From an uncultured Thermoplasmata archaeon (lineage in GTDB: Archaea > Thermoplasmatota > Thermoplasmata > RBG-16-68-12): DNA of 64,000 nucleotides. How positions within the stretch are numbered: the stretch's first letter is position 1; the number at the start of each line of letters is the position of its first letter. The notes beneath the pieces were generated by a model. It worked only from the letters and a program-made list of their open reading frames with translations. It was not told the origin of the DNA and made no database searches. Both the position numbers and the translations under genes were made by a program. Below are positions 17,474-43,653 of the stretch, piece after piece. Where the stretch lies: positions 1,024,001 through 1,088,000 of the forward strand of contig CAVYJM010000006.1 of NCBI GenBank assembly GCA_963768855.1, written 5' to 3'.

Positions 17474-17476
17474 CCT

Positions 17477-21642: not shown

Positions 21643-22737
21643 TCAGCCTGCCGATTGTGCCATCCGAAGCAGCTTCCGTGCAGGCACGTACCGGCCCGGG
21701 TAGCCCATTGCACGGAGGGCGTCAGAAAACAGCACTGATGCTGCCTTCGATCTCCACTCCTTCTGTGCCTCGACCACGAGAACGACCACTTCATCGTTCG
21801 GCCTCAGGTCCGCGTTAGTGGTTGCTGAGCCGTCCGGCGTCATATAGCAGATGCGATCGGGAGCGAGTGCAGCGGGGCGTTGGTTCCGCAATGCAATCAT
21901 ATTCTCGTTCATCGACTTCACCCTGACATGGCATCCACGATATTCGCCTGTGCCTCGAACGTCGAGTAGTCCAAACGTGTAGCTTCCCTTGCTCTCAGTC
22001 TTGACGCGCTCCACACGTCCGCGCACAAGGATTGCCCCGCCCATTTTGCCCAGCACGGCAGGGACCGGATCCTGTTCCGACGCGACTGCTTCGCGTATGG
22101 CCCTGCCGACTTCTTGTGCTAGGGAGATGGTGCCGGAGATGCACACGCGCTTGGCAATACGGCCGCTCACTCGGTAGCAGGCAAGCCCGGCGAGCCATCC
22201 AAAATCCTCCAGCGCCGAAAGCGCGAGCCTCTCAGCCAGTGCATAACTGTCGGTTCTGATCACCACAGTCTCTCCTGGCGCGTTTCCAAGTGCCATTGGA
22301 GTAAGATGGATGCCCTCGGCAAAGAGAAGCGACTGATTGAGGTGGGGAATAGCCCGTCCCGCACCATCGGCGTCGACGAGGGTGACTGGAGCGTGGGCTG
22401 CGACGGTCATCGGAGTAAGAAAGTTGAATCCACTTGCCTCAACCGGGAGCACGTACTGAATCCGTTCTCCGATCGACTCTTCAAGGGAGGCGAAGGCGCT
22501 CTGCGCCTGCGTCGTGAACGGGATACGTAGCATGGCTTCAGGTGACCCCATGCCCGCAACAGTCACCACTGACGCCTGGTCCTGGACTCCGGAGAGTGGA
22601 GTCATCTGAATAGACTTCCTCCGGAGCCAGCCATCGGCAAGTGCTTTGGCAGCTCGGAAGGATCCACCGCCTCCAGTGCCGAGAATCGTCCCACCCAAAG
22701 CAATATCGAGGAACTCTTTGTACCCGAGCGATCTCAT
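21643..22737 (-). CDS. DUF917 family protein
   Basis: GGTILGTGGGG, AGMGSP, PVEASGFN, VDADGAGRAIP, MNENM..APDRIC. Confidence 0.85.
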   Translation of the reverse strand: MRSLGYKEFLDIALGGTILGTGGGGSFRAAKALADGWLRRKSIQMTPLSGVQDQASVVTVAGMGSPEAMLRIPFTTQAQSAFASLEESIGERIQYVLPVEASGFNFLTPMTVAAHAPVTLVDADGAGRAIPHLNQSLLFAEGIHLTPMALGNAPGETVVIRTDSYALAERLALSALEDFGWLAGLACYRVSGRIAKRVCISGTISLAQEVGRAIREAVASEQDPVPAVLGKMGGAILVRGRVERVKTESKGSYTFGLLDVRGTGEYRGCHVRVKSMNENMIALRNQRPAALAPDRICYMTPDGSATTNADLRPNDEVVVLVVEAQKEWRSKAASVLFSDALRAMGYPGRYVPARKLLRMAQSAG

Positions 22738-23029
22738 CGCGACACCTCAAGCGACTGACTCTATTTATGCCTAGGCATCCCCGTTCGCGGGCATGGGACG
22801 CCGTGGAATACATGGACGGAGCCTGACAACAGGGGGACTAGGCGGACCCTTACAGCGGAGTCTAGTCAACTCTGCCAGCACCTTATGTTGGCCACAGCTT
22901 GGCTGGACGTCGCGCTGCGCGAGCTGGTCCGCTCCCTGGGTCCGAGCCCGATGCATCAGATCTGTCATCTGAGCTTCTCCTCACCATAGCAGTTGCTTAC
23001 GGCCGAGGCCCCCGCATGAGACTCGCCGT

Positions 23030-23818
23030 CTAGAAAGACGCGACCGGGCATGCTGCCGTGATCCCCCCGTCAATCGAGAAGACTGCACCGGTGACATACG
23101 CCGACCGATCGCTTGCCAAAAACAACATCAGCTCTGCAATCTCCTCAGCCGTCCCGAGACGTTTCAGAGGATGGGAGTCTGCGAGCGCCTTTTGCAGCTT
23201 GTCTCGATCGGGAGCAGCGTCGAGCACTTGATCAAGCATCCGTGTATGCAGAGTTGAGGTTGGGGCAACTGCATTGACCCGAATGTTACGATCCCCATAT
23301 TCAATTGCGAGTGCCCTCGTCAGTTGTATGACACCACCCTTCGAGGCACAATATGCGCCGAGATTTGCAAAGCCAACGATTCCTGCATCCGAAGCTGTGT
23401 TGATGATCACCCCCCCGTTCGCACTCAGAAAGTGAGGTATCACATGCTTCGACATCAGGAAAGCTCCCTTGAGATTCGTGTCAATGATGTCGTCCCAAAG
23501 AGCCTCGGATGTCTCGATGATCTTTGCGACCCTCGCGATGCCGGCGTTGTTCACGAGAATGTCTATCCCCTTGAAGGCCTTCAGAGTCTCATCGACGGCG
23601 TGCTTCACTTGGGCCTCATTCCTGACATCTGTCTCAATAAAGAGCGCCTTGCCCCCCGTCCGTTCAACCATGTCTACCGTCTCTCGGCTCCAAGCAGGAT
23701 CCAAGTCGATTACCGCAATCGATGCTCCCTCCTTCGCGAAGCGAAGTGCCGTCGCACGTCCGATGCCTGATGCCGCCCCCGTGATTGCCGCGGTCCGGCC
23801 TGAGAGCTCCATGAACAC
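23030..23818 (-). CDS. short-chain dehydrogenase/reductase
   Basis: TGAASGIG, NNAG, YCASK, NAVAP; Asp after beta2 suggests NAD preference. Confidence 0.93.
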   Translation of the reverse strand: MFMELSGRTAAITGAASGIGRATALRFAKEGASIAVIDLDPAWSRETVDMVERTGGKALFIETDVRNEAQVKHAVDETLKAFKGIDILVNNAGIARVAKIIETSEALWDDIIDTNLKGAFLMSKHVIPHFLSANGGVIINTASDAGIVGFANLGAYCASKGGVIQLTRALAIEYGDRNIRVNAVAPTSTLHTRMLDQVLDAAPDRDKLQKALADSHPLKRLGTAEEIAELMLFLASDRSAYVTGAVFSIDGGITAACPVASF

Positions 23819-23946
23819 CGATCAGGCATCGTCGGCTGAGTACAAAACTGTTTTCAGAAAGTCCTTGTTCCGAGAGCTGGAGCCGCGACAGGACTCGCCT
23901 CGAGCCACACGGATTCGTTAAATATGTTCATTCTGATTACTTCTCC

Positions 23947-24972
23947 ATGTCACGTAGGCGCTTGAAACTCTCGTCCCTTGGTGGAGTGCCGATGAGACCC
24001 GCATGGCGAACAACTGGGGTCATCAAGGTCGCGGAGCACCCGGACGGCTCCGCGGAGACCATTCCTTTCGTAGTTGTCACAGGAGCCGCGGAAGGTCCGT
24101 CTCTCTGGATAACGGCGTGTGAACACGGCGACGAGGTACTTAGCGCGAGTGCTGTCGTAGAGTTCATGAGCCGGCTCGATCCCAACGAGGTCAAGGGTCA
24201 GGTTGTCGCCTTGCCCGTCCTTGACAGCACGGCATTCAACATCAAGCGGCGGTTCAGTCCTATCGACAGCTATGACTTCAGTAGGGCGTGGCCAGGCTTC
24301 AAAAACGGTTGGTTGGCGCAGCAGGTTGCCGTTAGGATGTTCGAGCTTCTGAAGGCTCATGCTGACTTCGTGATCGATGTTCACAACGGAATGCCTGGAA
24401 TCTCTGAAGTGGCTCCGTACATGATTGCAGGCTACGAGAGGAGGGAGCAGTGGGAATCTACGATCAAAGGTTTTGCCGAATCCTTTCTCTTCGAGAAGAT
24501 TATCCACTGGGTCGGAACGTCCACTGAACGAGGAGCGCGGACATCAACGATGATGGCGGCGCTCGTCAAAGAGGGGATTCCATCGTTCGTGCCTGAAATC
24601 GGACCCGATACCAACACGGGCACCAAGGTCGCACTTCGAGGCTTCGAGAACTCAATGAAGTACCTCGGAATGCTTGAGGGCGAGCCCAAGAGGTTGCCCA
24701 ATTACATGGCCTTCCCTGATGTGATTCACGTCTTCTCGACGAGGGGCGGTCTATTCAAATCGCACGTGAGCCTTGAGGACGAAGTCAAGGAAGGGCAAAA
24801 GCTAGCTTCAATCCGTAACTTCACTGGCGAGATCACTGAAGAGCTGGTGAGCCCAGCGGCAGGTATTGTCATCGCTATCTGGGTACTCCCGATGATAGGA
24901 TCAGGTGATTTCTCCGCGTACGAGATTGCGACATTCGACGAATTCAGGAAGCCTTGGCCTGGCGAACGATAG
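23947..24972 (+). CDS. AstE/AspA family (M14) deacylase, paralogue 1
   Basis: CEHGDE zinc motif, DFSRAWPG, DVHNG, VPEIG, C-terminal biotinyl-like domain. Confidence 0.9.
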   Translation: MSRRRLKLSSLGGVPMRPAWRTTGVIKVAEHPDGSAETIPFVVVTGAAEGPSLWITACEHGDEVLSASAVVEFMSRLDPNEVKGQVVALPVLDSTAFNIKRRFSPIDSYDFSRAWPGFKNGWLAQQVAVRMFELLKAHADFVIDVHNGMPGISEVAPYMIAGYERREQWESTIKGFAESFLFEKIIHWVGTSTERGARTSTMMAALVKEGIPSFVPEIGPDTNTGTKVALRGFENSMKYLGMLEGEPKRLPNYMAFPDVIHVFSTRGGLFKSHVSLEDEVKEGQKLASIRNFTGEITEELVSPAAGIVIAIWVLPMIGSGDFSAYEIATFDEFRKPWPGER

Positions 24973-25127
24973 CGATGTCGGCTATCCTACGTTGACAACC
25001 CTCTCCGAAATATCCGTAAGCGTGGTGCGTGAGGTCCAGCGGGTCGCATGACGTCGTTCGATTGGCATGCGCCCGCTCCGAGGTATTATCCCTGACAAGC
25101 CGCTACTCCCACCGAGGTGGTGTATTC

Positions 25128-26375
25128 ATGGAACGGATCGATGCGGATGTACTCATCCCGGGACGTGGGGATGTGGTGAAGAACGGTTGCGTGGTTTTGG
25201 ATGGGAAAGCAATTGCCTACTCAGGTCCCATCGAAAGCGCTCCCAACACCCCCGCCGACACCATAGTCCACAACGTGCCCGTCATCATGCCGGGGATGTG
25301 GGATTGCCATGCGCATTTCATGGGGCTGAAAACCGCGGATCTCAGCGAAGCCGCCAGGAGCTCGCCGCAGGTGACGGTTGTGCGAGCTGCCAAAGACGCA
25401 GAGCTCGCGCTACGGGCGGGCTTTACGAGTGTTCGCGAGGCTGGCGGGTATGGAGTCTTCCTTGCCCGCTCCGTGGAAGAGGGGACGCTGAAAGGGCCCC
25501 ACATTTATGGATCTGGGGCTATCCTCAGCGCCACCGGCGGTCACGGGGATCTCCACTCATATCCACTGGATTGGGTGCTCTCCATGGCCTCTTCGGTGGG
25601 CTTCCTCGGCCTCTGCGATGGAGTCGATCAATGCTTCAAGGCCACCCGAAGCCAGCTTCGGCTAGGCGCGCGAGTAATCAAAGTCTGTGCCTCTGGAGGC
25701 GTTCTCAGCACCTTTGACAGCCCCGTTCATCAGCAGTTCACGGACGCCGAACTGAGGGCAATCGTAGAAGCTGCGGGCATGGCGGACCGCATCGTCATGG
25801 CTCATTGCCATGGAAAGGCTGGCATTATGGCCGCTTTGAACGCAGGATGCCATTCCATTGAGCACGGCTCTTACCTCGATGACGAAGCAGCGGAGTTGAT
25901 GGTCCTCAGGAAGGCGATACTGGTTCCTACGCGGTTCATTATCAATCGCCTCCGCGACTTCGCTGAGGTGGCTAAGTTGTCAGACGTATCCTGTCGCAAG
26001 CTCGATCTCCTCGCGGATCATCACAAGGAGGCAATGCGGCTTGCCGTAAGGAAGGGGGTGCGAATCGCCCTGGGGACGGACATCCAGACCTCCGGCATGG
26101 ATACGGCAGTTCCCTGGGGTATGAACGCCTCGGAACTCCGATGCCTCGCCGAGGCGGGCATGACCTCCCTCCAGGCGCTCGAGGCTGCAACGGCCACGGG
26201 GCCGCTCACCTTGGGGCCACAGGCCCCGAAGTCGGGCCAGCTCAAGGAAGGCTACGACGCGGACATACTCGCAGTCGTGAAGAACCCTCTCCAAGACCTC
26301 TCCGTGCTGACGAACCCGGCTAACATTACGGAGATTTGGAAGTCCGGGGCCCTCGTAAAGGATCTGTCCGGGTGA
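25128..26375 (+). CDS. metal-dependent amidohydrolase, prolidase/ochratoxinase-like subgroup
   Basis: PGMWDCHAH, IKVCASGG, AHCHG, IEHG, ALGTD; GAGGTG SD before ATG 25128. Confidence 0.9.
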   Translation: MERIDADVLIPGRGDVVKNGCVVLDGKAIAYSGPIESAPNTPADTIVHNVPVIMPGMWDCHAHFMGLKTADLSEAARSSPQVTVVRAAKDAELALRAGFTSVREAGGYGVFLARSVEEGTLKGPHIYGSGAILSATGGHGDLHSYPLDWVLSMASSVGFLGLCDGVDQCFKATRSQLRLGARVIKVCASGGVLSTFDSPVHQQFTDAELRAIVEAAGMADRIVMAHCHGKAGIMAALNAGCHSIEHGSYLDDEAAELMVLRKAILVPTRFIINRLRDFAEVAKLSDVSCRKLDLLADHHKEAMRLAVRKGVRIALGTDIQTSGMDTAVPWGMNASELRCLAEAGMTSLQALEAATATGPLTLGPQAPKSGQLKEGYDADILAVVKNPLQDLSVLTNPANITEIWKSGALVKDLSG

Positions 26376-26870: not shown

Positions 26871-27785
26871 TTAGGCGCCGCCTCGCTTCTTCGCTCGCTT
26901 CTCCTTTTCCTTGGGCCACCCCTCGACAGCCCGGGCCGTCGCGAGGGTGTCCTTCTGCGTGCGGTAGACCGCTATGTCGATCATCTGCCCTCTAAGGGGA
27001 ACCGAAGCTTCCCCTCTTTCTATCCCCTCCTCGAAAATCTTGACGACTTCCTTGGCGTAAGCGATTTGAGCTTGAGTCGGTGCGTATATCTCATGCGCGG
27101 GTTCGACCTGTGATGGATGTATCAACATCCTTCCCTCAAAGCCAAGCTGCCGCCCCGTCCGCGAATCCCTGGCAAATCCTTCTTCGTCTCTGAAAGCAGG
27201 ATAAGGTGGGTCTATCGCTATGCATCCGGCGGCCCTGGCAGCTATGGCAGTCCAAGAACGGGCGACCAAGATTTCGCCGCCCTCCTTGGTGAGTGTGACA
27301 CGCATGTCGCGGGTGTAGTCCACGGCTCCGAACACGAGCGAATTGACTCGTTTGCTGCCGAGAGCTGACTCGTATGCGTTGACAACCCCCTTAGCTGTTT
27401 CAATCAGACACTGGATGGCAATGCTGCCTGGCTCCAGACCGTGTGCTTCTTCCAGCTTTGCCAGCCTGTCGTCGAGCTTTGCGGTGTCGTCCTTCGACTC
27501 CGTCTTGGAGAGAACGACGCCATCGAGCCCATCTTGGACTGTGGCTTCGAGATCGGTATCTGTCAGACCAGTCCTCCAGTCATTAACCCTGGCGTAGACG
27601 TAGGCCCCACTCTTCGCCAGGTTCGGAATCGAGTCGTGGACTAGGAACCTCGCTGTCTCCTTCTCGTTAGGCGGTACCGAGTCCTCCAGATCAAGGACGA
27701 ACACATCTGCGGACAGTGTCGGCAGCTTCTCGATCATCCTAAGGTTGTTGCCCGGTGTGTACAAAACTGATCTCATGACGACCAA
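26871..27785 (-). CDS. CitE/HpcH family acyl-CoA lyase (citryl/malyl-CoA lyase-like)
   Basis: RSVLYTPGN, LDLEDSV, ARVN, IETAKG, FGAVDY, GFEGRMLIHPSQV. Confidence 0.92.
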   Translation of the reverse strand: MVVMRSVLYTPGNNLRMIEKLPTLSADVFVLDLEDSVPPNEKETARFLVHDSIPNLAKSGAYVYARVNDWRTGLTDTDLEATVQDGLDGVVLSKTESKDDTAKLDDRLAKLEEAHGLEPGSIAIQCLIETAKGVVNAYESALGSKRVNSLVFGAVDYTRDMRVTLTKEGGEILVARSWTAIAARAAGCIAIDPPYPAFRDEEGFARDSRTGRQLGFEGRMLIHPSQVEPAHEIYAPTQAQIAYAKEVVKIFEEGIERGEASVPLRGQMIDIAVYRTQKDTLATARAVEGWPKEKEKRAKKRGGA

Positions 27786-27819
27786 GCTGTCTCACCTTTC
27801 CCGAAAGCGAGCTCCCGGC

Positions 27820-28734
27820 CTAATATGTTTGTTGCCTCGACTCGCTCAGGATCTCCGCGACCCTTGTAGGAATCTCAGCTGGCTTCTCGACGACGTAGGC
27901 TCCTGCGTCTTTGAGGGCTTCTATCTTGCTCTTGGCCGATCCCTTTCCGTGCTCTACAATGCTGCTGGCGTGCGAGAAGCGCATCCCTTCAGGGGCCCAG
28001 GCTCCCGCAATATATGCTACCAGTGGCTTCGTGAAGTGACCCTTCTTTATCTCCTCGGCGGCTTCTTCTTCGGTAGTTCCTCCGAGTTCGCCGAACATTG
28101 CCACGGCCTTTGTCTGTTCGTCAGCCTCAAAGAGAGGGAGTAGGTCCCCAAAGGACGTGCCTATGATTGGCTCTGTCCCCTCATGGACGAGCGTGCTGCA
28201 GCCATAACCTGCGCGCTTGATGATCCACGGCAAGGTACCGGACTGCCCTCCACTTCGGGACAGAATCCCAATTGGGCCTGGCTGGAAAACCTGAGCTGCC
28301 CTCTCAACCGAGCTTCCAACCCAACCCAGCACAGCCTTCCCAGGAGTCATCACCCCAATGGTCCCCGGTCCTACGATCCGAGCTCCTCTCCGTTTTGCAG
28401 TCGCCACCATCAACATTATGTCGTGCAGCGGAACGCGCTCGACCGGCGATACGATTAACTTTATCCCTGCGTCTATCGCCTCGAGCACCGCGTCTTTCAA
28501 GAGTGGTCCGGGGACGAACGTGACGGTTGCCTCGACGGGCCCGTACTTCCCAACAGCCTCTTGCACCGTATCACAGACCGGGACGCCGGCAGCCACCGTT
28601 CCTCCTCGACCAGGTGTGACACCCGCTAGGATCTTCGTGCCGTATTCTCTCATATACCTCGTATAGGTCTCGCCGGCCCGTCCAGTAACCCCTTGGACTA
28701 TGGCCGTGGTTCTCTCATCAATGAGGATCCCCAC
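27820..28734 (-). CDS. ADP-forming acyl-CoA ligase alpha subunit (SucD-like)
   Basis: VQGVTG, AGVTPGRGG, VGPGT.G, LSRSGG, GELGG, FSHAS phospho-His. Confidence 0.9.
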   Translation of the reverse strand: MGILIDERTTAIVQGVTGRAGETYTRYMREYGTKILAGVTPGRGGTVAAGVPVCDTVQEAVGKYGPVEATVTFVPGPLLKDAVLEAIDAGIKLIVSPVERVPLHDIMLMVATAKRRGARIVGPGTIGVMTPGKAVLGWVGSSVERAAQVFQPGPIGILSRSGGQSGTLPWIIKRAGYGCSTLVHEGTEPIIGTSFGDLLPLFEADEQTKAVAMFGELGGTTEEEAAEEIKKGHFTKPLVAYIAGAWAPEGMRFSHASSIVEHGKGSAKSKIEALKDAGAYVVEKPAEIPTRVAEILSESRQQTY

Positions 28735-28737
28735 ACT

Positions 28738-29031
28738 TCATCCCCTGACATTGGACAGCGACTCCCTGTACTTGCTCAATTCCGGCATCGGAACAACTAT
28801 CCTGATGGCGCTTAACCCTCGGAGCCGGCACTCATATTCACATGCGAGGCACTCTGTTCCCTGCCTTTCTGTCTCTCCCGAGGACACCACGACCGTGGGC
28901 TTTCCCGCTTGGAGCCTCAGGATACCGCGACTGTAGCGACTACAGGCCTTGATGCATGCCTTTGTTCGGCAGTCTGTGCATCTGGTGTCGTCGATGAATA
29001 TAGTTATCGTTCTTTCATTGAATGCTGTCAT
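28738..29031 (-). CDS. ferredoxin-like Fe-S protein
   Basis: CTDCRTKACIKAC and ECLACEYEC Cys motifs; 4-nt overlap with the SucC-like gene. Confidence 0.8.
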   Translation of the reverse strand: MTAFNERTITIFIDDTRCTDCRTKACIKACSRYSRGILRLQAGKPTVVVSSGETERQGTECLACEYECRLRGLSAIRIVVPMPELSKYRESLSNVRG

Positions 29032-30290
29032 GCGCGCAACCCCCTCTGCTTTCTGTACTCATCCACGAGTGCTCGCATCCTGTCGGCAATGAAGTCAGGG
29101 TTGAAGACGTAGTCGCTTCCGTAGATTTCAAGGCGTATAGGCAGGCCCGCAAGACCCTCTTGCAGAATGGAGTGAGACTCCTTCTCCCGGTTTCCACAAA
29201 TCAGAAGTACCACCGGGAAGCCGGTTTTGTCGATGAGGTCCTCCCTGAACGCCTTCACAAGCGCATGGGCGTGGTGCCACTGCTCTTGGTTGGCCACGAT
29301 GAAACCTCCTAGCAGATATCCCTCGATTCCAGGTTGTGCAAGAATCGTTTTGGCCAAACGGTACACCTTGGACGCAGTGGGGTCACCGCTTGAGTCGGAG
29401 TAGTTGGCGATCCTCAGCCCTCTTCTGTTCAGGGCGTCGACGCCGAGGATGGCTCCGCCGCCGCCGATACCGTGGTAGCCAACATACCCCGGCTCCTCAA
29501 TTTTGGAGACCATTTGTGAGAAATATGCATTGCCCCTGTAGTCACCCTCCTCTATCATCCAGGCGGCCACTTCCAAGGGAGTTGGCTCTCTCTGGAATTC
29601 CCTGGCTACTCGTATCCCGAGTTCTGGATGGCGGAATATGGCTGAATCATCAACGACAACACGACAGTCTGCCGCGACTATGTTCCCATCCGTCGTAAAG
29701 ACCAACGGATTTACCTCCGCCGACCGAGCCTCGTACTTTATGAAGAGTTCGTAGATTCCGCAGACAACGACACTTAAGGGGGCCAGAAGATGTCTCGGAG
29801 CTCCTGCGCTTGAAACGAGTTCGATGGCTTCGGATGACGTAACGCCACGGGGGAAGTCAACGATCAGGCGGGCTACTCTCTCAGGCGACTCCTTTGCGAC
29901 CTCCTCAATGTCGACCCCTCCCCGAGTACTGAACATGATCACTGGACCTCTTATCGCTCGAGAAGTGTCGACGATAACCCCAACGTAGAACTCCGTGTCT
30001 ATGTCAAGCCTCTCCTCGACCAGTACCCTTTCCACCCTTACCCCTTTGATTTCAGCGCCTAGAAGCTCCTTTGAAACCGCCTCCGCCTCGTCGGGGCTGT
30101 TTGCAGGCTTGATTCCACCGGCTTTGAAGCGACCGGTTGCCCAGATCTGCGCCTTGATCATCACCGGTTTCCCAATCTCGGTGGCGATGCTTTTCGCTTC
30201 GGCGGATGTGGAGGCGACCTTGCCGGACGGCACGGGAATCTTGACGTCGCGCAGCAACTGCTTTCCCTGGTACTCATGCAATCTTACCAT
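29028..30290 (-). CDS. ADP-forming acyl-CoA ligase beta subunit (SucC-like, divergent)
   Basis: RLHEYQGK, IKAQI..GRFKAGG, VLVEE, GGVDIEE, EVNPL; acid-binding loop reads GIGGGG rather than GNGAG. Confidence 0.9.
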   Translation of the reverse strand: MVRLHEYQGKQLLRDVKIPVPSGKVASTSAEAKSIATEIGKPVMIKAQIWATGRFKAGGIKPANSPDEAEAVSKELLGAEIKGVRVERVLVEERLDIDTEFYVGVIVDTSRAIRGPVIMFSTRGGVDIEEVAKESPERVARLIVDFPRGVTSSEAIELVSSAGAPRHLLAPLSVVVCGIYELFIKYEARSAEVNPLVFTTDGNIVAADCRVVVDDSAIFRHPELGIRVAREFQREPTPLEVAAWMIEEGDYRGNAYFSQMVSKIEEPGYVGYHGIGGGGAILGVDALNRRGLRIANYSDSSGDPTASKVYRLAKTILAQPGIEGYLLGGFIVANQEQWHHAHALVKAFREDLIDKTGFPVVLLICGNREKESHSILQEGLAGLPIRLEIYGSDYVFNPDFIADRMRALVDEYRKQRGLRA

Positions 30291-30911: not shown

Positions 30912-30947
30912 ATAGGATCCAAATACACGCAGTCGGGGGTCAATTCC

Positions 30948-31958
30948 TTGGCCGATCTTGTTCTAGGGAGGACGAAGGCGAAACAGGGGACGAAAGCTCA
31001 CGGCACTCTCAAAGTAGCTGAACATCCCGATGGGTCTCCTGAACAAATCCCTTTCGTCCTCGTGAATGGCTCAGGCGACGGACCCTCGCTATGGATCGCA
31101 GGCTGTGAACACGGGGACGAGTATCTTGCTGCTGCCACGATTATAGAGTTCATTGCCCAGCTCGACCCCGAGAAGGTGAAAGGCCAGGTCGTTGCATTCC
31201 CCGTACTTGACAGCACCGCCTTCAATATCAAGGAGCGGTTTAGCCCGATTGATCACTATGACTTTAGCCGGGCGTATCCAGGTTTCAGGAACGGGTGGTT
31301 GGCCCAACAGATCGCTTTTCAGTTTATTGAACTCGCTTCAAAGAGAGCGGACTACGCCCTTGATATGCACAATGGTATTCACGGGGTCGTGGAGGTAAGC
31401 CCATATTGTGTCGTCAATTACGAGACCGAAGAGCAGTGGAAGTCGATGTATCAAGGATTCGTCGAGTCCTTCTTGACCGAGAAGATTGTGCATTGGTTTG
31501 GGACGTCTACTGAGCGCGGTGCTCGCACTTCGATGATGAATAACGCCCTCATGCACAAAGGGATTCCTTGCTATGTCCCGGAGATCGGGCCGGATCTGAA
31601 GACTGGAATGCCTCATGGCATCCGGGGTTTGCAGAACACCATGAAGTACCTGGAAATGCTCGATGGGCGGCCAGAAAAGCTCGAGAAGTATAGAAACTTC
31701 CCGGACGTCCTCCACGTGTTCCCAACACGGGGTGGAGTCTTCAAGTCTTACGTTGAACTCAATGAAGAGGTCAAAGAAGGACAGAAGCTGGCGTCTATCC
31801 GTAGTTTTTACGGCGAGATTACCGAAGAGCTCGTGGCACCAGCCGCAGGAGTCATCGTGGCGAGATGGCTAATCCCGGTGATCGGTACAGGCGATTTCAG
31901 CGCTTTCCAGTTAGCGCCATTCAAGCCCTTTGACCGACCGTGGCCTGGTGAGCGCTGA
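30948..31958 (+). CDS. AstE/AspA family (M14) deacylase, paralogue 2
   Basis: CEHGDE, DFSRAYPG, DMHNG, VPEIG; TTG 30948 chosen by alignment to the other paralogues. Confidence 0.9.
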   Translation: MADLVLGRTKAKQGTKAHGTLKVAEHPDGSPEQIPFVLVNGSGDGPSLWIAGCEHGDEYLAAATIIEFIAQLDPEKVKGQVVAFPVLDSTAFNIKERFSPIDHYDFSRAYPGFRNGWLAQQIAFQFIELASKRADYALDMHNGIHGVVEVSPYCVVNYETEEQWKSMYQGFVESFLTEKIVHWFGTSTERGARTSMMNNALMHKGIPCYVPEIGPDLKTGMPHGIRGLQNTMKYLEMLDGRPEKLEKYRNFPDVLHVFPTRGGVFKSYVELNEEVKEGQKLASIRSFYGEITEELVAPAAGVIVARWLIPVIGTGDFSAFQLAPFKPFDRPWPGER

Positions 31959-35492: not shown

Positions 35493-36398
35493 ATGTTTCG
35501 GTTTTGGCGGAACTTTCCATTCATGGTGGCCGCGGGCCTTGTTCTGGGCCTCGTGACGGGGGGTTTTCCGGCCACTTATTCAGGAACAATCCTAGATTTC
35601 ACGTTGATTCTTGCAATGGTCTTCGCTCTAACAGAGATCTCCTTCCGAGGGATTTCACCAAGGTCGGAGACTCGAGGGGTCGCACTTTCCTTCGCGATGA
35701 ACTATGGCGCACTGGGAGGCCTCGTGCTGCTGTTTGGACTCTGGAGTGCGAACTCAGATATCAGGAGCGGCTGGATTCTCATGGCCGCGGTGCCACCGGC
35801 GATTGGCGTGGTGCCCATCACGTCCTTCCTGACCGGGGACGTTCGACGCGCACTCATTTCCAACGCGGTCATCTACCTTCTCGGTTTGGCCACAGTGCCG
35901 TTGTTGAGTCTCCTGTTCCTAGGCCAAGCGGTCCCGGCGACCGACCTAGTCGTGCAAACGCTTCTCCTCATTGGGATTCCCATTGTGGTCTCGAGACCTC
36001 TTCGACGATGGGAACAAATCCAGAAAGTCCGGCCGACCGCGGTGGGGGTATCCTTCTTCTTCTCCGTACTCACGATTGCCGGCTCAACACGAAGCGTCCT
36101 TCTCGGTCGACCCGATCTAGTTGTAGACCTGTCGGGGCTTGCCTTCCTTCGCACGTTTGGCCTCGGTCTTGCACTTTACGTGACCACACGCGCGGTTGCG
36201 GTCCCTCGAAAGGATCGGATTGCCGTCATAACCTTCGCGGGATTCAAGAACCTTGGGCTCACAGTGGTCTTGGCTTTCACTTTCTTCGGGCCTCTCGCCG
36301 CACTACCGTCCATCGTTTCGCTAGTCTTCGAGATTCTCTGGACGAATGCACTCCCATTTCTGTTCCGCGTGCCCGCAAGAGGCGTGAGAAGAATCTGA
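35493..36398 (+). CDS. bile acid:sodium symporter (BASS)-like membrane transporter
   Basis: About 9 TM; GWILMAAVPPAIG, NAVIYL, GFKNLGL motifs. Confidence 0.75.
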   Translation: MFRFWRNFPFMVAAGLVLGLVTGGFPATYSGTILDFTLILAMVFALTEISFRGISPRSETRGVALSFAMNYGALGGLVLLFGLWSANSDIRSGWILMAAVPPAIGVVPITSFLTGDVRRALISNAVIYLLGLATVPLLSLLFLGQAVPATDLVVQTLLLIGIPIVVSRPLRRWEQIQKVRPTAVGVSFFFSVLTIAGSTRSVLLGRPDLVVDLSGLAFLRTFGLGLALYVTTRAVAVPRKDRIAVITFAGFKNLGLTVVLAFTFFGPLAALPSIVSLVFEILWTNALPFLFRVPARGVRRI

Positions 36399-36581
36399 GG
36401 CGAGGACGGCTTGGTGAAGTCGGTGAGCCTCCAAGAGTCCCTTCACGGTAGGATTCCATCGGTTCAGACCCTCCCTTCGCCGTCGCATGAGGAGCCCGTC
36501 TGGTTCATGTCGCCTCTGAAGTGCGCGCATATCCTCCGTATCCTCACATCGACTAGATGGTCGACATGTCAAAGAGGTCTG

Positions 36582-37622
36582 CTACTGCTTCTCAGGTGGG
36601 TGATATTTGAAGCATGCTACGGAATGGCCGTCGGTGGTTTCTCTAAGAGGGGGTGCGGCGTTTCGGCATATGTCCATCACCCATGGACACCGGAATTGGA
36701 AGTTGCACCCCGCCGCCTCACGTTGCGCCTCGGTGACCTCAATGCTGGTTTGCACGCGCTTCCGACGAGTCAAGCCTTCCGCGACAGGGACCGCCGAGAG
36801 GAGCAGCTGAGTATATGGATGGAGGGGGCTTCCGACGACGTCAGCGGCCAATCCAATCTCAACAATCTTGCCACGATACATTATGGCGATTCGGTTACTG
36901 ATGTATCGGGCAACGGCCAGATCATGCGTGATGAACAGAAAAGCAGTCCCGAGTTGCTGACGAAGGTCGAGCATGAGGTTGAGGATGCCCGACGCGACCG
37001 AAACGTCGAGCATGGAAACAGGTTCGTCGGCCACAACAAACTCAGGCCCGAGCACCAAAGCCCTCGCAATCGCGACGCGCTGGCGTTGCCCACCACTGAG
37101 TTCTGAAGGGAACTTGGACATGAACGCGCTGGCAGGGCTTAGTCCCACCTGCTCAAGGATCCTAACAACGCTGGAATGCAGGTCTTCTTTTCCGATGTCC
37201 CGATTCACTCGAAGCGGTTCCGCGACAGTGCGGAACACCGTCATCCGAGGGTCCAAAGATTGGAATGGGTCCTGAAAGACCACTTGCATTCGTCGCCGGA
37301 ACGGTCGGAGTTGCCTTCGCTTGAGTTCGCAGAGGTTCGTGTCCCCGAGGAATATGCTTCCTTCTGTGGGGAACTGCAGCATGGTGAGAAGTTCTCCCAT
37401 CGTTGTCTTGCCACACCCGCTTTCACCCACGAGGCTGAGTATCTCTCTCTCCTTGATGTCCAAATCGACTCCATCCACGGCCCTGATAGGTCGCTGCTTC
37501 CTCCCCGCGAGTGATCGAAGTAGGCCAGCGGATGGCGTGAAGTATTTCCTGACTCCGCGAGCACGGACAACGGACACATCGTTAGATGGTGTCATTTCGA
37601 CCCCGTTGCGTAGAGGAGACAT
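36582..37622 (-). CDS. oligopeptide ABC ATPase (DppF/OppF-like)
   Basis: GESGCGKTT, LSGGQRQR, ADEPVS, HPYT, C-terminal FeS-type Cys motif. Confidence 0.94.
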   Translation of the reverse strand: MSPLRNGVEMTPSNDVSVVRARGVRKYFTPSAGLLRSLAGRKQRPIRAVDGVDLDIKEREILSLVGESGCGKTTMGELLTMLQFPTEGSIFLGDTNLCELKRRQLRPFRRRMQVVFQDPFQSLDPRMTVFRTVAEPLRVNRDIGKEDLHSSVVRILEQVGLSPASAFMSKFPSELSGGQRQRVAIARALVLGPEFVVADEPVSMLDVSVASGILNLMLDLRQQLGTAFLFITHDLAVARYISNRIAIMYRGKIVEIGLAADVVGSPLHPYTQLLLSAVPVAEGLTRRKRVQTSIEVTEAQREAAGCNFQFRCPWVMDICRNAAPPLRETTDGHSVACFKYHPPEKQ

Positions 37623-38557
37623 CTGGTTGGATGGCGGAGCTCGGGCATATACAGGGCAATGGAGTCACGCTCGCACTCGGGGAACGCCTTCGGGCAGCGT
37701 GGGCGGAACAAACACCCCTCGTGCCGCATGCTCAGATCGGGGGGGATCCCCGGCAGGGTTGCCAGCCGCGACCTGACTCCTCGAACGGTCGGGACACAGT
37801 GAAGCAGCGCCTCGGTGTAGGGATGAAGCGGCCTACTCAGTATCTCATCCTTGTCAGCGAGTTCCACCACCTGACCAGCGTACATGACTGCGACACGGTC
37901 ACAGACCTCGGAGACAACCGCGATATCGTGAGAAATGAAAACCACCGTCCGCCCTCCTTCTTCCTGCCAGTCTTCGACATTCTTGAGGATTCGGTCTTGA
38001 ACGACCACGTCCAGTGCTGTAGTCGGCTCATCTGCGATTAGCACTTCTGGGTCAAGCAGCAAGGCAAGAGCGATGGCGGCGCGCTGACGCATTCCTCCCG
38101 AGAACTCATGCGGATAACTCCGAACGCGAGACTCAGGGATTCCCATCGAGACCAGTGCTTTCTCAGCGGCACGAGTCGCCTCGCTCTTGGAGGATCCGAG
38201 GTGGGACATATGAACGGCGGCAAGTTGCTCAACAATCCGGTGAACGGGAGAAAAAGCGTTCATCGAACTCTGGAAAACCATTGCGACTCTCGTCCAGCGA
38301 ACTTCCCGCAACTGCGACTCGTCCATTCTGACAAGGTCTGTGCCATTGAGCAAAACCCGACCCGAGGCGATGATTGCGTTCATCGGCAAGACCCTAATAA
38401 TCGAATAGGCCAGGCTCGACTTACCACAACCCGATTCACCAACAATGCCAACGATTTCGTCGTTGTCAACTCTTAGAGACGTGTTGGTCACTGCGTTGAC
38501 CCTCTTTCCCGCGGGCAACTTATACTGAAGCGTCAAGTCTTGGATGTCAACAGTCAT
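37592..38557 (-). CDS. oligopeptide ABC ATPase (DppD/OppD-like)
   Basis: GESGCGKSS, FSGGMRQR, ADEPTT, HPYT. Confidence 0.94.
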   Translation of the reverse strand: MTVDIQDLTLQYKLPAGKRVNAVTNTSLRVDNDEIVGIVGESGCGKSSLAYSIIRVLPMNAIIASGRVLLNGTDLVRMDESQLREVRWTRVAMVFQSSMNAFSPVHRIVEQLAAVHMSHLGSSKSEATRAAEKALVSMGIPESRVRSYPHEFSGGMRQRAAIALALLLDPEVLIADEPTTALDVVVQDRILKNVEDWQEEGGRTVVFISHDIAVVSEVCDRVAVMYAGQVVELADKDEILSRPLHPYTEALLHCVPTVRGVRSRLATLPGIPPDLSMRHEGCLFRPRCPKAFPECERDSIALYMPELRHPTRCLLYATGSK

Positions 38558-39486
38558 GGGGACACTTCACCCAGATCCTCTCGCGCCACACTCACGCGGG
38601 CAGCGCCTTGGGTCGCGGCCAGCCCATCCCCTATGAGGTTGAAACTAAGGATCAGCAGGGCTATCGCGATTCCCGGAAAAAACGCCAGCCACCAAGCATC
38701 AACAAGGTGAAACGCTCCCACATTGACTATTTGACCCCAGCTGATGACGTTCGGGTCGCTGAGTCCTAGAAAACTCATTCCCGCTTCGAACAGAATCGCC
38801 TGTCCGATTTGGAGGTTGGAGTTCACAATAACCGGCTGAATCGCATTCGGCAGAATGTGTCTCACGATTACGGATGGGCCGGAAGCACCAGTTGCTACTG
38901 CGGCCCGTACAAACTGCCTCTCTTTTAGTGACAGCACGCTCGCCCGCATAATGCGAGCATTGGCCGGCCAGATTGTGATGCCAACCACTAGGATTTCGAA
39001 ACCGATGTTATTGCCGAAAATGGCGACTACCATCACCAATAGGAAGAAGGGAGGGATCATGAGGACGATTTCGAAGGAGCGGGAGAGCAGCTGGTCAAGC
39101 CACCCACCGAAGTATCCTGAGACAAGCCCCAATGGAATTCCGAAAACCATCGATAACCCTGCAGCCAGTACACCAAACAGTATCGAAACGCGTGCACCCC
39201 AAATCACTCGGCTAAACACATCGCGTCCTATGTCATCCGTTCCGAAGAGGTGAGCGGAAGAGGGTGGTTGGAGTTGCCCGAAGGCTATAGATGAGGGGGA
39301 ATAGGGCGCCAGCAACCATGGAACAAGAGCGAGGATTATGAAGAACAGCAAGACCGCGAGACCGAGAACAGCGGGCTTGTCTGCTCGAAAGCGTCGCCAA
39401 AAGGCTCTAACCCGTTTGGCCGACTCAAGCAACCCAGGATGGCCCCTAAGCGCTTCCAAAGCTCGTCGCAAGTGATATCGTTTCAT
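38554..39486 (-). CDS. oligopeptide ABC permease (DppC/OppC-like)
   Basis: HLFGTDDIGRDVFSR, RHILPN, EAGMSFLG, FNLIGDGL. Confidence 0.94.
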   Translation of the reverse strand: MKRYHLRRALEALRGHPGLLESAKRVRAFWRRFRADKPAVLGLAVLLFFIILALVPWLLAPYSPSSIAFGQLQPPSSAHLFGTDDIGRDVFSRVIWGARVSILFGVLAAGLSMVFGIPLGLVSGYFGGWLDQLLSRSFEIVLMIPPFFLLVMVVAIFGNNIGFEILVVGITIWPANARIMRASVLSLKERQFVRAAVATGASGPSVIVRHILPNAIQPVIVNSNLQIGQAILFEAGMSFLGLSDPNVISWGQIVNVGAFHLVDAWWLAFFPGIAIALLILSFNLIGDGLAATQGAARVSVAREDLGEVSP

Positions 39487-39699: not shown

Positions 39700-41439
39700 A
39701 TGCGGCTCTTGGTGATCGCTTTTGTCTTGGCAACCATTGTGGCGGGGTCGTTTGCTGGGGTTGTGTCCACGGGCGCGGTCAGAGCCCAGGGCGAAAAAGT
39801 GCTCGTGATCGTGCAGCAGAACGACCCTGGGATATTCAACAACATCCTGGCGAACACGATTGGAGCACGATACGTGCACTACAATGTATGGCAGGAGTTA
39901 GTGCACCTCAGCTATGACAGCCAGAACATAACGTACCAGCTCGCCAACAGTGTGAGCATATCTTCGGATGGGTTGAATTACACCTTCCATCTTCGTCCGG
40001 GACTGAAATGGAGCGATGGCGTTGCGTTCACTGCGGACGATGTCAAGTACACGTTTGACGAGGCCTTCGCACTACCGACATGGGGTCTCGACTATCTCTT
40101 GGACGTCAACTCCACCCACGTGGATGACCCCTACAACATCAGTTTTGTTTTGAAGGGGGCTAATGCAGCATGGCTCCCGTATTTTGCCTTCGGATCTGAC
40201 CATGGTCTCAACATTCTCCCGAAGCACTTGTATGAGGGCACCAACATTTCGACGAACCCAAACAACTTCCATCCAATCTCGCTCGGCCCGTTCCTATTCG
40301 ACTCGTACACCCCAGGTCAATCGATTACCCTCGCAGCAAACCCCAACTATTGGGGCGGCAAGCCTACTGTTGACAAGGTTCTCATCAAGATTCTGCCGTC
40401 CTCGGCTACCGCCCTGCAGGAGCTGCAGTCAGGCGACTTGATGTACGTCGGTTCATATGACAACTCTATCGCGTACTCACAAATCCCGCCGGTCGCTGCG
40501 ACACCCAACATACGCGTCGATGGGGCGGAATGGCCTGTCGTCACCTTGATGCTCATGAACACCAAAGACGCAGCGGTTGGGAATGTAACACTGCGCCAAG
40601 CGATCGGATATGCCATTAATCGTACCGAACTCGCTACCAAGGCGTTCTACGACTATGCCTTCGCCATGAACGGGTTCTACCTCAACACCAAGTGGTATAA
40701 CCCCGCGGCAGAGCTAGCCTACAACCCGACGAAGGCGACTCAGCTGCTAGACCAGCTCGGGTACCCACAGGGAACTTGTCGCGTCAACATTGAACTCTCA
40801 TACCACACCCTGTTTGGCATGGATGTTGAGGCTCAGGTGATAAAATCGCAGCTGGCCGAGGTGGGCATCTGCGCGACACTCTGGTCGGGAGACTACGCAA
40901 CTTGGTTCCAGAGAGTCCAGGTGGACGGCAATTACCAGATTGCACTACGCGCGTGCATGATCGGACCAGACCCTGACCTCTTCTGGCCATGGCTCAACCC
41001 GCTTCACCAGGGCGAGAGCGGCTCAACCTTCTTCAACAACACTGCAATGAACAACTTGTTCAGTCAGGCAAGACAAATCAACGACTTCGCCCAGCGGAAG
41101 TCGATGTACGACCAGGTCCAGCAGATTCTACATGACAATGTGCCGCTCCTCCTGCTCACGAACCTGCAGGACGTTAACCTGTGGCGGACCGACTTGGTGC
41201 GCAACATGGGGGCCGAAACGGGGACAAACAGATGGGATCTGGCCACGGCGGAATTGGTTACTACCGCAGCACCGAGCACTCTGGACCCATTCATCGTCAC
41301 CGGTGTCGTGATTGTTGTGATCGCCGCCGTGGGCGGAATTGTGTGGTGGCGAGTGAGCAAGGGCCGAGCCAGCAAAGCAAAGCTGAGAGAACCACCCCGC
41401 GAACAGCAACCACCCCAAGGAGGGCCACCGGGAGGCTAG
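39700..41439 (+). CDS. ABC substrate-binding protein family 5 (DppA/OppA-like) with C-terminal TM anchor
   Basis: Signal peptide, YTFHLRPGLKWSDG..FTADDVKYT, LGPF, C-terminal hydrophobic helix; GGAGG SD before ATG 39700. Confidence 0.93.
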   Translation: MRLLVIAFVLATIVAGSFAGVVSTGAVRAQGEKVLVIVQQNDPGIFNNILANTIGARYVHYNVWQELVHLSYDSQNITYQLANSVSISSDGLNYTFHLRPGLKWSDGVAFTADDVKYTFDEAFALPTWGLDYLLDVNSTHVDDPYNISFVLKGANAAWLPYFAFGSDHGLNILPKHLYEGTNISTNPNNFHPISLGPFLFDSYTPGQSITLAANPNYWGGKPTVDKVLIKILPSSATALQELQSGDLMYVGSYDNSIAYSQIPPVAATPNIRVDGAEWPVVTLMLMNTKDAAVGNVTLRQAIGYAINRTELATKAFYDYAFAMNGFYLNTKWYNPAAELAYNPTKATQLLDQLGYPQGTCRVNIELSYHTLFGMDVEAQVIKSQLAEVGICATLWSGDYATWFQRVQVDGNYQIALRACMIGPDPDLFWPWLNPLHQGESGSTFFNNTAMNNLFSQARQINDFAQRKSMYDQVQQILHDNVPLLLLTNLQDVNLWRTDLVRNMGAETGTNRWDLATAELVTTAAPSTLDPFIVTGVVIVVIAAVGGIVWWRVSKGRASKAKLREPPREQQPPQGGPPGG

Positions 41440-41485
41440 TCCGAGTCACCGCTTCCCTAGAGTACTTCCTGGAGCGCAGGCGGAT

Positions 41486-42463
41486 ATGCTACGCAGGTAC
41501 CTAGTGACCCGGCTTTTGCAGATAGTACCCGTACTGTTCGCGATTGTCACTATCGACTTTCTCATTATACATCTGGTTCCAGGAGACCCGGCAATCGCAC
41601 TCGCTGGGCCCAACGCCAACCCTGACTTCATAGCAGCAATCCACCGGGAATTCGGTTTCGACAAACCGCTCTACGAACAGTACTTCATCTATATTCTCAA
41701 CCTCATGCAAGGCAACCTCGGTATCTCCGTTGCGCAGCACCGCCCAGTTCTCGACACGATCTTGGAGCGGCTTGGACCCACCCTGCTCCTCATGCTAACA
41801 GCCTGGTTCGTGTCGCTTGGCCTTGGAATCTACCTTGGGACGAAGTCTGGAATGAGACAAGGTTCTCTTTGGGACCGCTCAATGTCTCTTTTTGCGCTAA
41901 CAATCTACTCAATCCCTGTCTTCTGGCTCTCCCTCATGACAGTGACGCTGCTCGCGCTTCGGTTTCCCGTCTTTCCAGTATCGGGAATGGTGGACCTAAG
42001 ATACCCTAGCCAAGGGATAGGTCTCGTTATTGACCTAGGTCGACACATGGTTCTTCCACTGATCAGCATGGTTGCATTCTACATGCCACAATTCTATCAG
42101 CTGACTCGTTCCGGCGTCGTCGAGACGCTCAATGAAGACTTCGTGACCACCCTTCGCGCGACAGGACTGAGGCAAACCCCCGTGTTCTCGCGCTATGTCC
42201 TGAAGAACGCCTCTTTGCCAACGGTGACCCTGGCGGGGCTATGGTTGGGCTACGCCCTGACTGGCGCGGTACTTATCGAAGTGATTTTCGCCTGGCCTGG
42301 GCTCGGACGACTGCTGTTTGACTCGGCGCTGGCACGCGACTACCCAGTGCTCCTGGGTGTATTCATATTCGCCTCGGTCATGGTCGTTTTCGTGGCTTTG
42401 ATTACAGACCTGCTGTATGTGTACCTGGATCCCCGGATGCGCTACGGCAAGGAGCAAGTTTGA
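41486..42463 (+). CDS. oligopeptide ABC permease (DppB/OppB-like)
   Basis: RRYLVTRL, PGDPA, GFDKPLYEQY, LIEVIFAWPGLG, DYPV, LDPRMR. Confidence 0.94.
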   Translation: MLRRYLVTRLLQIVPVLFAIVTIDFLIIHLVPGDPAIALAGPNANPDFIAAIHREFGFDKPLYEQYFIYILNLMQGNLGISVAQHRPVLDTILERLGPTLLLMLTAWFVSLGLGIYLGTKSGMRQGSLWDRSMSLFALTIYSIPVFWLSLMTVTLLALRFPVFPVSGMVDLRYPSQGIGLVIDLGRHMVLPLISMVAFYMPQFYQLTRSGVVETLNEDFVTTLRATGLRQTPVFSRYVLKNASLPTVTLAGLWLGYALTGAVLIEVIFAWPGLGRLLFDSALARDYPVLLGVFIFASVMVVFVALITDLLYVYLDPRMRYGKEQV

Positions 42464-42615
42464 GTCAGACTCTGGCCGCGCCCCGCTGATGATGCGGAGG
42501 TCAGCTGCCAAGCTGGACCAGTTCTCAGGTCATGTGCGGTTCGTGCTGCTGATTGAGTGCGGACCGTGTGTGCCCGCGGCTGGTGACCCGCTTGTCTCGA
42601 GGATCAAGTTGTGGT

Positions 42616-43653
42616 CTACCCTGCAATCGGCCCTATGGCAAGGTCCGGATGGACTATCTTCCCGTCCTTGACGACGCACTCATCGTCCAAGAACATGCTC
42701 TGCTTCATGAGCATGGTGTCCAGGTGCGACCTCGCCTTGTTCTTGCCTCCCAGACCGCGGAAGATGTTGGCACCGAGCGCGAAATTGATGCATCCCTCGA
42801 TGCTCTCGACCTCCTGAGCCTGGTCGATACTCGCCCGCGGATCCCCCCCGAATCCTATGTGCGAAACAATGTAGCTATTGGGGTCTCCGAACGAGGCCAG
42901 CCAGTTCTCCATGCGTCTCGCGTCGGCACGTCCTTGGATTTCCATCGCTCGCCCCTTCTTGAGTTTGATGGCAAACTGGTCAGAAACGAGTATCTCCTGA
43001 GGCGTGGTCCACACAAAGTCGCCGGGTTCTACAACGAGCGTGCCTTCCACGGACCCTTCAATCGGTGCGCATGCGAATATAGAGGAGGGTGTGCTGTCCC
43101 ACTCACCGGGTTTCCGGGCAATTCCATCCTGCCCCCAGCCATTTCGACCCTCGACGTTCGCAACCACGTTGGTGCCGTTGTCCGAAGTGATTCGAATCTG
43201 CTTCGCCTTCGTGAGCATTTTGGCCACACGCTGTGCCCGCTGGACCAGTGCCTCCGTGGGCGGCATCTTCACGAGGGTATGCTCAGTGGAAAGGACCTGA
43301 AGGACTCTCCCCCCCGAGTCGAGGATCTCGTTGAGTCCATTGGTGTACAACCACTGCTCAGACGAGAGATCTGCAACCATCTTCGCACCTTTCATCGCGA
43401 GCAGGGCGGGAGGACTCGGTTCCTGAAGCATCTTGTGCGGCGCAGGAATGGTCAGCATGAGCGGCTCCAAGTCCAGCGCCAGCGCCGCGCCAAAGAAACC
43501 CTCCACCAGAGCCGGGGACTTGCCTGTGTCGGTATATATCGCAAGCAGGTCACCCGGTCGCAGTTCACACAGACTTAGTATCTTCCGTATGCTTCGCAGT
43601 GCCTCCAATCTGTACAAACTCAAATCCTCACCCCGCGTCCAGACGTGGTCCAT
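42616..43653 (-). CDS. NicX-like / M29-fold metalloenzyme
   Basis: GIARKPGEWD..PS, SHIGFGGDPRA, SHLD, LDDECVVKDG parallel the recalled NicX motifs. Confidence 0.7.
   Translation of the reverse strand: MDHVWTRGEDLSLYRLEALRSIRKILSLCELRPGDLLAIYTDTGKSPALVEGFFGAALALDLEPLMLTIPAPHKMLQEPSPPALLAMKGAKMVADLSSEQWLYTNGLNEILDSGGRVLQVLSTEHTLVKMPPTEALVQRAQRVAKMLTKAKQIRITSDNGTNVVANVEGRNGWGQDGIARKPGEWDSTPSSIFACAPIEGSVEGTLVVEPGDFVWTTPQEILVSDQFAIKLKKGRAMEIQGRADARRMENWLASFGDPNSYIVSHIGFGGDPRASIDQAQEVESIEGCINFALGANIFRGLGGKNKARSHLDTMLMKQSMFLDDECVVKDGKIVHPDLAIGPIAG

Follow-up and report, generated by a model that had tools for sequence, protein, structure and literature searches.

The window analysed here, a 64,000-nucleotide (nt) stretch of DNA from an uncultured Thermoplasmata archaeon (contig CAVYJM010000006.1, positions 1,024,001-1,088,000), carries a 28-kb element integrated at a tRNA-Asn gene. 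We can say with high confidence that this island is a mosaic of two independently evolved modules. Module A combines a family-5 ATP-binding cassette (ABC) importer with several putative amide hydrolases, and module B is a CoA cassette encoding a SucC/SucD-like ligase, a ferredoxin-like protein and a CitE-family lyase. As a whole, the explanation that we favour with moderate confidence is that module A would scavenge amides and module B would run a malyl-CoA route. A preliminary description of positions 21643-43653 had proposed a single pathway from import through ring opening and CoA activation to cleavage of a hydroxy-acid, a proposal that comparison with other genomes does not bear out.

The integrated island and its mosaic history

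Genes flanking the island look archaeal, and close homologues of the island M14 proteins are labelled 'Thermoplasmata archaeon'. The GC content of the window falls from about 0.65 in the host to 0.54-0.60 over 20-45 kb. The 3′ end of the tRNA-Asn gene is repeated exactly, over 22 nt, at the far end of this region, and a tyrosine integrase gene adjoins the att site at the tRNA (Table 1). In congener G013 (98% complete) the site is empty, the tRNA being followed by sequence that matches window positions 47169-47516. Taken together, the att repeat, the adjacent integrase, the GC drop and the empty site identify a tRNA-integrated genomic island. It is larger than the stretch for which the preliminary description had rightly used that word, and the att sites, the integrase, a decayed second ABC copy and the layout in about 10 alternating-strand units, not a single operon, come in addition. 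In a freshwater sediment run (X1), possibly the source sample, reads lie over 30 of 30 bins of positions 17000-36900, mostly at 99% identity or above; no contig of this run joining across the CoA cassette was found.

The genes named in the preliminary description are all present as open frames of the families stated there, the BASS transporter being a weak assignment. Every gene listed is open, and the ratio of nonsynonymous to synonymous substitution rates (dN/dS) against orthologues is 0.05-0.15, with 0.29 for the ferredoxin-like gene. Such low values indicate past purifying selection, covering the period since the split from the relatives and not necessarily the present day.

The mosaic is apparent from comparison with the closest relatives. 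Metagenome contigs L130 and L131 hold a single 13-kb block of genes for OppB, the binding protein, OppC, OppD, OppF, DUF917, a short-chain dehydrogenase/reductase (SDR), M14a, the amidohydrolase, M14c and the NicX-like protein; congener G014 has the same content in pieces. Two stretches of the window, 20037-26360 and 42626-44709, are colinear with L130/L131 and about 80% identical to them. Its intervening 16 kb contain the CoA cassette, M14b, an inverted M14c, the aminotransferase, the BASS gene and the intact importer, whereas in L130/L131 the amidohydrolase stands next to M14c, with a gap of about 310 nt and no cassette in it. From L130 the outer genes differ by a synonymous divergence (dS) of 0.71-0.94 and the ABC remnant, like the neighbouring module A genes, by 0.75-0.88, but the intact ABC set differs by 1.6 to saturation and is thus a replacement importer of different ancestry. 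The aminotransferase, BASS protein and amidohydrolase have core-genome paralogues in the host (73, 64 and 62% identity, respectively), and the three M14 paralogues of the island are 63-65% identical to each other. Searches of 37 congeners and of 400 genomes of the class did not turn up the cassette, so that its gain by this lineage is the simpler account. Module B would have been inserted later, along with the aminotransferase, the BASS gene, the extra M14 genes and the replacement importer.

The two modules were never found together elsewhere. None of 40 module A loci holds any cassette gene (0/40), and no DUF917, M14, NicX-like or amidohydrolase gene occurs within up to 10 kb of the cassette in 80 loci (0/80). 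The aminotransferase and the BASS gene, listed earlier with the set, duplicate core host genes, and no other module A copy among the 40 loci has them. When recurrence of the proposed gene set is considered, the importer, DUF917, SDR and M14 genes do recur, and the cassette, aminotransferase and BASS genes are not among them. The window illustrates how a shared island location can mimic one pathway.

Table 1. Features of the window, with coordinates and strand.
Feature	Coordinates	Strand	Remarks
tRNA-Asn(GTT), integration target	17397..17471	+	
attL, 22-nt exact repeat of tRNA 3′ end	17452..17473	+	
Tyrosine integrase	17517..18767	-	likely ATG at 18653
Deletion remnant of ancestral ABC importer	20426..21483	OppB 3′ end (-); OppC fragment and OppF 3′ end (+)	
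DUF917, 'a' subtype, module A	21643..22737	-	dN/dS 0.09
NAD-type SDR, module A	23030..23818	-	
M14a, AstE/AspA-type deacylase, Ser-Arg subfamily, module A	23947..24972	+	
Ochratoxinase-like amidohydrolase	25128..26375	+	in this lineage a module A accessory; paralogue of host gene (62%)
CitE-family acyl-CoA C-C lyase, module B	26871..27785	-	probable malyl-CoA lyase
SucD-like CoA-ligase alpha subunit, module B	27820..28734	-	phospho-His retained
7-Cys ferredoxin-like protein, module B	28738..29031	-	97 aa, Cys-rich
SucC/CCS-like ATP-grasp beta subunit, module B	29028..30290	-	own acid-binding loop
M14b	30948..31958	+	fast-evolving paralogue inside M14c clade
M14c deacylase	32143..33153	-	inverted relative to L130
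Class I pyridoxal-phosphate aminotransferase, PRK06225	33740..34846	-	376 bits, cut-off 351
BASS/SBF-like transporter	35493..36398	+	weak assignment, E 1e-5
OppC, OppD, OppF of intact (replacement) family-5 ABC importer	36582..39486	-	
Family-5 binding protein (39700-41439), anchored in the membrane at its C-terminus, and OppB	39700..42463	+	
NicX/M29-fold metalloenzyme	42616..43653	-	probable hydrolase
Frameshifted oxidoreductase pseudogene	44046..44697	+	F420/NADP-oxidoreductase-like by sequence; open in L130
attR	45477..45498	+	

Beyond the island, a degenerate third copy of the tRNA-Asn 3′ end (46683-46699) marks a tandem 1.2-kb islet, in the region 45500-47170, with a weakly methyltransferase-like open reading frame (ORF) at 46022-46690. 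A small Cys/His ORF at 20074-20292 (+), 90% identical over 73 residues to an L130 ORF, is possibly an unannotated zinc-binding protein. A NicX-like remnant suspected at 19567 was dropped, since tblastn gave no confirmation. Other module A copies adjoin an integrase or integrase-like ORF at a tRNA (L191:19059-20291 and L141:522-2000), which suggests island-borne movement. A second island, L002 (G000:C12:103000-122960), lies at a tRNA-Ser and has a related integrase (43%), a dihydropyrimidinase-like amidohydrolase and DUF917, together with several ORFs that, judged by eye, resemble defence or 7-deazaguanine genes.

Module A, an importer with putative amide hydrolases

The set that makes up module A, namely a family-5 ABC importer, DUF917a, an SDR and two to five M14 genes, recurs in about eight lineages (L130, L133, L138, L143, L153, L189, L190 and L191), in agreement with the earlier suggestion that the importer and several amide hydrolases belong together. 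Most copies have a short HyuA-type ATPase gene between DUF917a and a DUF917 of a second type (DUF917b); most also carry SnoaL-like and aldo-keto reductase genes, and some IlvD or a 2-hydroxyacid dehydrogenase. The HyuA-DUF917 pair is present in L133, L138, L143, L153 and L189-L191 and absent from the window island, and orthologues of HyuA and DUF917b were not found in this genome (best matches 27-34%). In the searchable, mostly open literature on DUF917, on the cassette and on malyl-CoA with Bathyarchaeia we found neither module described, and module A appears to be a new cluster. It would represent a compact, conserved nutrient-scavenging cluster of an uncultured Thermoplasmata genus.

The island M14 proteins belong to a subfamily of about 60 clusters at 48-91% identity, below which there is a gap down to 35%; among the genomes searched it was found in this genus only (2 of 36 congeners, 1 of 400 class genomes). 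The zinc ligands H-x-x-E and H and the catalytic Glu are kept in the three island paralogues and in 29 other rows of the clade, and the Asn-Arg carboxylate-binding pair of AstE/AspA/DoeB is changed to Ser-Arg in 32 of 32 rows. Against the DoeB model TIGR02994 the island proteins score 72-93 bits and do not reach the cut-off of 403.

DUF917a of the window lacks acidic residues that are kept in types b and c, two of them in comparison with type b. Its scores against the NCBIfam equivalogs for thiohydantoin and S-methyl thiohydantoin desulfurase lie below their cut-offs (77 versus 450 and 47 versus 440 bits). A role in ergothioneine catabolism was rejected: DUF917 is far under these cut-offs, no ergothioneine pathway gene is found among the island ORFs, and the nearby ammonia-lyase (47519-49093) is a host gene outside attR, with host-like GC at third codon positions and a score passing the HutH cut-off. 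For HyuA and DUF917b of L189, a predicted complex scored 0.80, a mark that 58 of 80 solved complexes and 2 of 110 mismatched pairs attain, and the best of three controls scored 0.00; contact agreement between model runs was at least 92% and the partner pLDDT at least 88. The model supports a predicted binding of these two proteins to each other. No solved complex of this kind was found by sequence. DUF917 proteins have been suggested as hydantoinases (10.1101/2023.09.25.559410), and the predicted complex would fit an ATP-driven cyclic-amide hydrolase with DUF917 in the place of HyuB. Two further DUF917 loci were observed. One (L004, G000:C8:56000-72663), of low GC, holds a PKD-domain binding protein, an aminotransferase, DUF917, HyuA/HyuB, an amidohydrolase, an ornithine-cyclodeaminase-like and an M20-like gene; the other, from another family of the class, has five DUF917 paralogues in 8 kb (G256:C3:119222-126751; L161, L174, L182, L186, L188).

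The amidohydrolase is closest to ochratoxinase (4C5Y, E 2e-97), an N-acyl amino acid hydrolase, and its binuclear site (H-x-H, Lys, His, His, Asp) is kept. M29 aminopeptidases have a binuclear site of three Glu, two His and an Asp, and they are the next nearest folds (TM about 0.6) to the NicX-like protein after NicX itself (7CN3; E 1.6e-26, Foldseek TM 0.86, model pLDDT 92). One Glu and an H-x-D motif, which may belong to such a site, are present in the island protein. With active-site residues taken as defined for NicX (PMC7910607), the iron ligands His265, His318 and Asp320 are kept and Ser302 is changed to Ala, and the substrate residues His105, Glu177, His189 and Arg293 are replaced by Tyr, Gln, Ser and Glu, respectively; in NicX, R293A abolishes iron binding and activity (PMC7910607). 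As five active-site residues are missing, the oxidative opening of dihydroxypyridine, cited in the preliminary description as the NicX reaction, is unlikely, and the protein is probably a hydrolase. A true Fe(II) dioxygenase that turns a hydroxypyridine into an N-formyl amide for the M14 enzymes, to which the closeness to NicX and the three kept ligands might point, is made very improbable by these substitutions, by the gene content of the island, whose ORFs include neither a pyridine hydroxylase nor any other nic gene, and by the absence of NicX-like genes from most module A copies.

NicX-like homologues at 52-60% identity occur in 3-4 copies amid M24/M20 peptidases and family-5 ABC importers. 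In two lineages, L130 and L224, the NicX-like gene adjoins an M14 gene (tail-to-tail in L224). The module A copies with a NicX-like gene, which represent few events, show no HyuA-DUF917b, a hint that the one replaced the other. Two related loci may be mentioned. In L001 (5543-13070; G000:C6:835-843 kb), which belongs to the genome of the window, another family-5 ABC operon ends in overlapping DUF917 and NicX-like genes; L122, L123 and L118 have 3-4 tandem NicX-fold paralogues alongside peptidases of families M24 and M20 and a family-5 ABC importer with a PKD domain, a separate uncharacterised system.

From gene content, recurrence and residue changes we infer the following reactions and substrates for module A. 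The family-5 ABC system would import a peptide-like or cyclic amide, and hydrolysis would open the ring. Removal of N-acyl or N-carbamoyl groups, or cleavage of the amides that remain, would fall to the M14 enzymes and the amidohydrolase, while the SDR would adjust a hydroxyl or keto function. The probable ring opener of most relatives is the ATP-driven HyuA-DUF917b enzyme; as this is lost here and NicX/M29-fold and ochratoxinase-like hydrolases are present, the step may have been replaced, or already-open amides may be used. That module A opens or deacylates amides, and does not consist of plain peptidases, seems to us slightly the more probable view. A single ligand of the binding protein might point to the substrates of three orphan groups at once: DUF917 with HyuA, the NicX-fold proteins without dioxygenase residues and the Ser-Arg M14 proteins.

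Module B, a conserved CoA cassette

Module B is a free-standing, fixed four-gene unit. In 80 genome loci with the cassette the ferredoxin-like gene is present in 79, SucD in 78 and CitE in 70. The window copy groups with those of Bathyarchaeia, Nitrososphaerales and unclassified archaea (SH-aLRT 99) in a quick, midpoint-rooted tree from which no donor is claimed. Neighbours in the 80 loci include genes for a GlcD-like oxidase (44), a formyltransferase-like protein (43), a GntR regulator (35), an alanine-glyoxylate-aminotransferase-like protein (11) and a glyoxylate-reductase-like protein (10), and 34 of 45 long loci have a GlcD-like, glyoxylate-reductase-like or alanine-glyoxylate-aminotransferase-like gene. 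These neighbours match the analogy with malate thiokinase and malyl-CoA lyase already drawn in the preliminary description. The formyltransferase-like gene (for instance L042:13640-14551 and its homologues) is a further gene beside the cassette.

The SucC- and SucD-like proteins score 227-246 bits against the succinyl-CoA synthetase (SCS) models and do not reach the cut-offs of 370-376; the NGAG/NFLD succinate site is replaced, and the genome has another SucCD pair at a different place. SucC matches Thermus SCS with E 8e-69 and the citryl-CoA synthetase (CCS) 6HXQ with E 2e-37. A weak Citrate_bind match is found (PF16114, E 2e-6), and the acid-binding loop, ANQEQWHH, is invariant in the cassette family; ATP-citrate lyase has ANFTN at that position. 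The ESM Atlas gave automatic ATP-grasp clusters only. A degenerate ferredoxin was ruled out, since Gly at the eighth-Cys position is the family consensus (73/85).

By analogy, module B is reasonably likely to run a malyl-CoA route. CitE would condense glyoxylate with acetyl-CoA to malyl-CoA, and the SucCD-like ligase with the Fe-S protein would release malate, forming ATP, as a stand-in for malate synthase. An isocitrate lyase is present in the host, and no malate synthase was found there. Use of glyoxylate via malyl-CoA by anaerobes has been described physiologically (PMC8092247, PMC6313629). We found no paper tying the cassette to malyl-CoA activity, nor a gene assignment for the anaerobic route, for which module B is a candidate. 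A peptide-transporter-rich, glyoxylate-shunt lifestyle has been described for Ca. Angelarchaeales (PMC9038741), a candidate likeness to the host only.

Alternative readings and related systems

Several observations weigh against the combination of amide scavenging and a malyl-CoA route. The copies of module A are related to one another and do not count as independent cases. No solved structure is close to the binding protein, its best matches (E 2e-37) being a mixture of peptide, nickel and opine binders from which the substrate is not readable, and the modelled complex consists of proteins of relatives that are lacking in this window. As to module B, the glycolate context comes from bacterial copies at 51-63% identity, and the nearest archaeal copies adjoin thiamine pyrophosphate (TPP) enzymes, 2-oxoacid:ferredoxin oxidoreductase and a GltD-like gene; as they stand beside TPP enzymes and not GlcD, there is room for another acid. 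The cassette contains the ATP-citrate-lyase-like motifs GGGGA and ANY..SG.P, and it is below the cut-offs for malate-CoA ligase and malyl-CoA lyase (165 versus 604 and 92 versus 500 bits). Taking into account the failed SCS, MtkB and Mcl cut-offs and the cassette's own invariant loop, we say that it would work like the malyl-CoA route, not that it is a member of those families. The search for malate synthase likewise found none in 20 of 37 congeners, and as no cassette shows in these 20 either, the argument from a missing malate synthase is weak and no more than a hint.

An oligopeptide importer with peptidases and carboxypeptidases, in which DUF917a and the SDR are leftovers of a lost ring opening, would account for module A with peptidase folds throughout (family-5 ABC, M14, M29-fold, carboxypeptidase-type amidohydrolase), and the missing HyuA/DUF917b orthologues and acidic residues of DUF917a are in line with it. 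We nevertheless consider it unlikely: DUF917a and the SDR have been under strong purifying selection (dN/dS about 0.09) and stand alongside M14 genes in every long copy, and the M14 proteins belong with the DoeB/AspA deacylases, though their carboxylate site is altered. Decaying cargo with no current function, as the ABC remnant and the frameshifted oxidoreductase inside the island might suggest, is hardly credible with all listed genes open and dN/dS values of 0.05-0.29.

The closest surviving form of the single-pathway idea joins the modules differently, by condensation instead of hydroxy-acid cleavage: module A would free glyoxylate, or glycine that the aminotransferase converts to glyoxylate, from a hydantoin- or ureide-type ring, and module B would capture it with a gain of ATP. 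The position of the cassette in the middle of module A speaks for it, as do a glyoxylate reductase gene beside two other module A copies, L191 (PRK13243, 480 versus 455 bits) and L133 (88% identical), and another 2-hydroxyacid dehydrogenase in L138 and L193. However, no other locus joins the two modules, these dehydrogenases lie at cluster edges and are absent from most module A copies within the stretch fetched, and the host isocitrate lyase is an alternative source of glyoxylate. We regard this link as rather improbable. Equally improbable is a complete new route, in which an unstudied NicX-fold or DUF917 hydrolase opens an imported ring of the hydantoin/ureide or lactam type and the Ser-Arg M14 enzymes lead on to glyoxylate, captured with a gain of ATP by a module B from another archaeal lineage, acting as a malate-CoA ligase with an iron-sulfur subunit and a malyl-CoA lyase. 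A little less probable still is that module B splits citrate or a related hydroxy-acid, possibly from N-citryl amides, by means of a citryl-CoA synthetase and a citryl-CoA lyase of the CitE type. The PF16114 and 6HXQ similarities and the citrate-lyase-like motifs favour it, but Thermus SCS is a far better match than CCS, the loop differs from that of ATP-citrate lyase, and the neighbours are glycolate genes; no evidence was found for the breakdown of N-citryl or N-malyl conjugates that had been offered as an alternative.

The favoured reading of module A shares the logic of import, ring hydrolysis and M14 deacylation with ectoine catabolism by DoeABCD, which employs an M24 ring hydrolase, the M14 deacetylase DoeB and an aminotransferase. 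Of the named M14 models DoeB comes nearest to the island M14 proteins, and its structure is among the closest to them; the island proteins differ in Ser-Arg for Asn-Arg, in the 2-5 paralogues and in having no DoeA, C or D set beside them. Like the HyuA/HyuB lactamases (N-methylhydantoinase, 5-oxoprolinase, caprolactamase), most module A relatives have a HyuA-type ATPase, but HyuB is lacking from their pair, DUF917b is the modelled partner, and the window has only the divergent DUF917a. Module A DUF917 proteins have the fold and the E/D metal-site motifs of the thiohydantoin desulfurases of ergothioneine catabolism, whereas ergothionase and urocanate hydratase are absent from the island. With NicX and the M29 enzymes AmpT and PepS the NicX-like protein shares the fold, and with NicX three of four iron ligands; it departs from NicX in five active-site residues and in its peptidase-rich contexts.

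Module B resembles the malyl-CoA route of Syntrophobotulus glycolicus, Desulfofustis glycolicus and Moorella sp. HUC22-1, and MtkAB with Mcl, in pairing a SucCD-fold ligase with a CitE-family lyase and, in bacterial copies, in the adjacent glycolate oxidase-like and glyoxylate genes. It differs from MtkAB/Mcl in scoring below the MtkB and Mcl cut-offs, in the 7-Cys Fe-S gene between the subunits and in its acid-binding loop. The island itself has the att duplication of the tRNA 3′ end, the adjacent integrase and the congener empty site of tRNA-targeted tyrosine-integrase elements, but shows metabolic cargo only, no replication, transfer or virion genes being seen.

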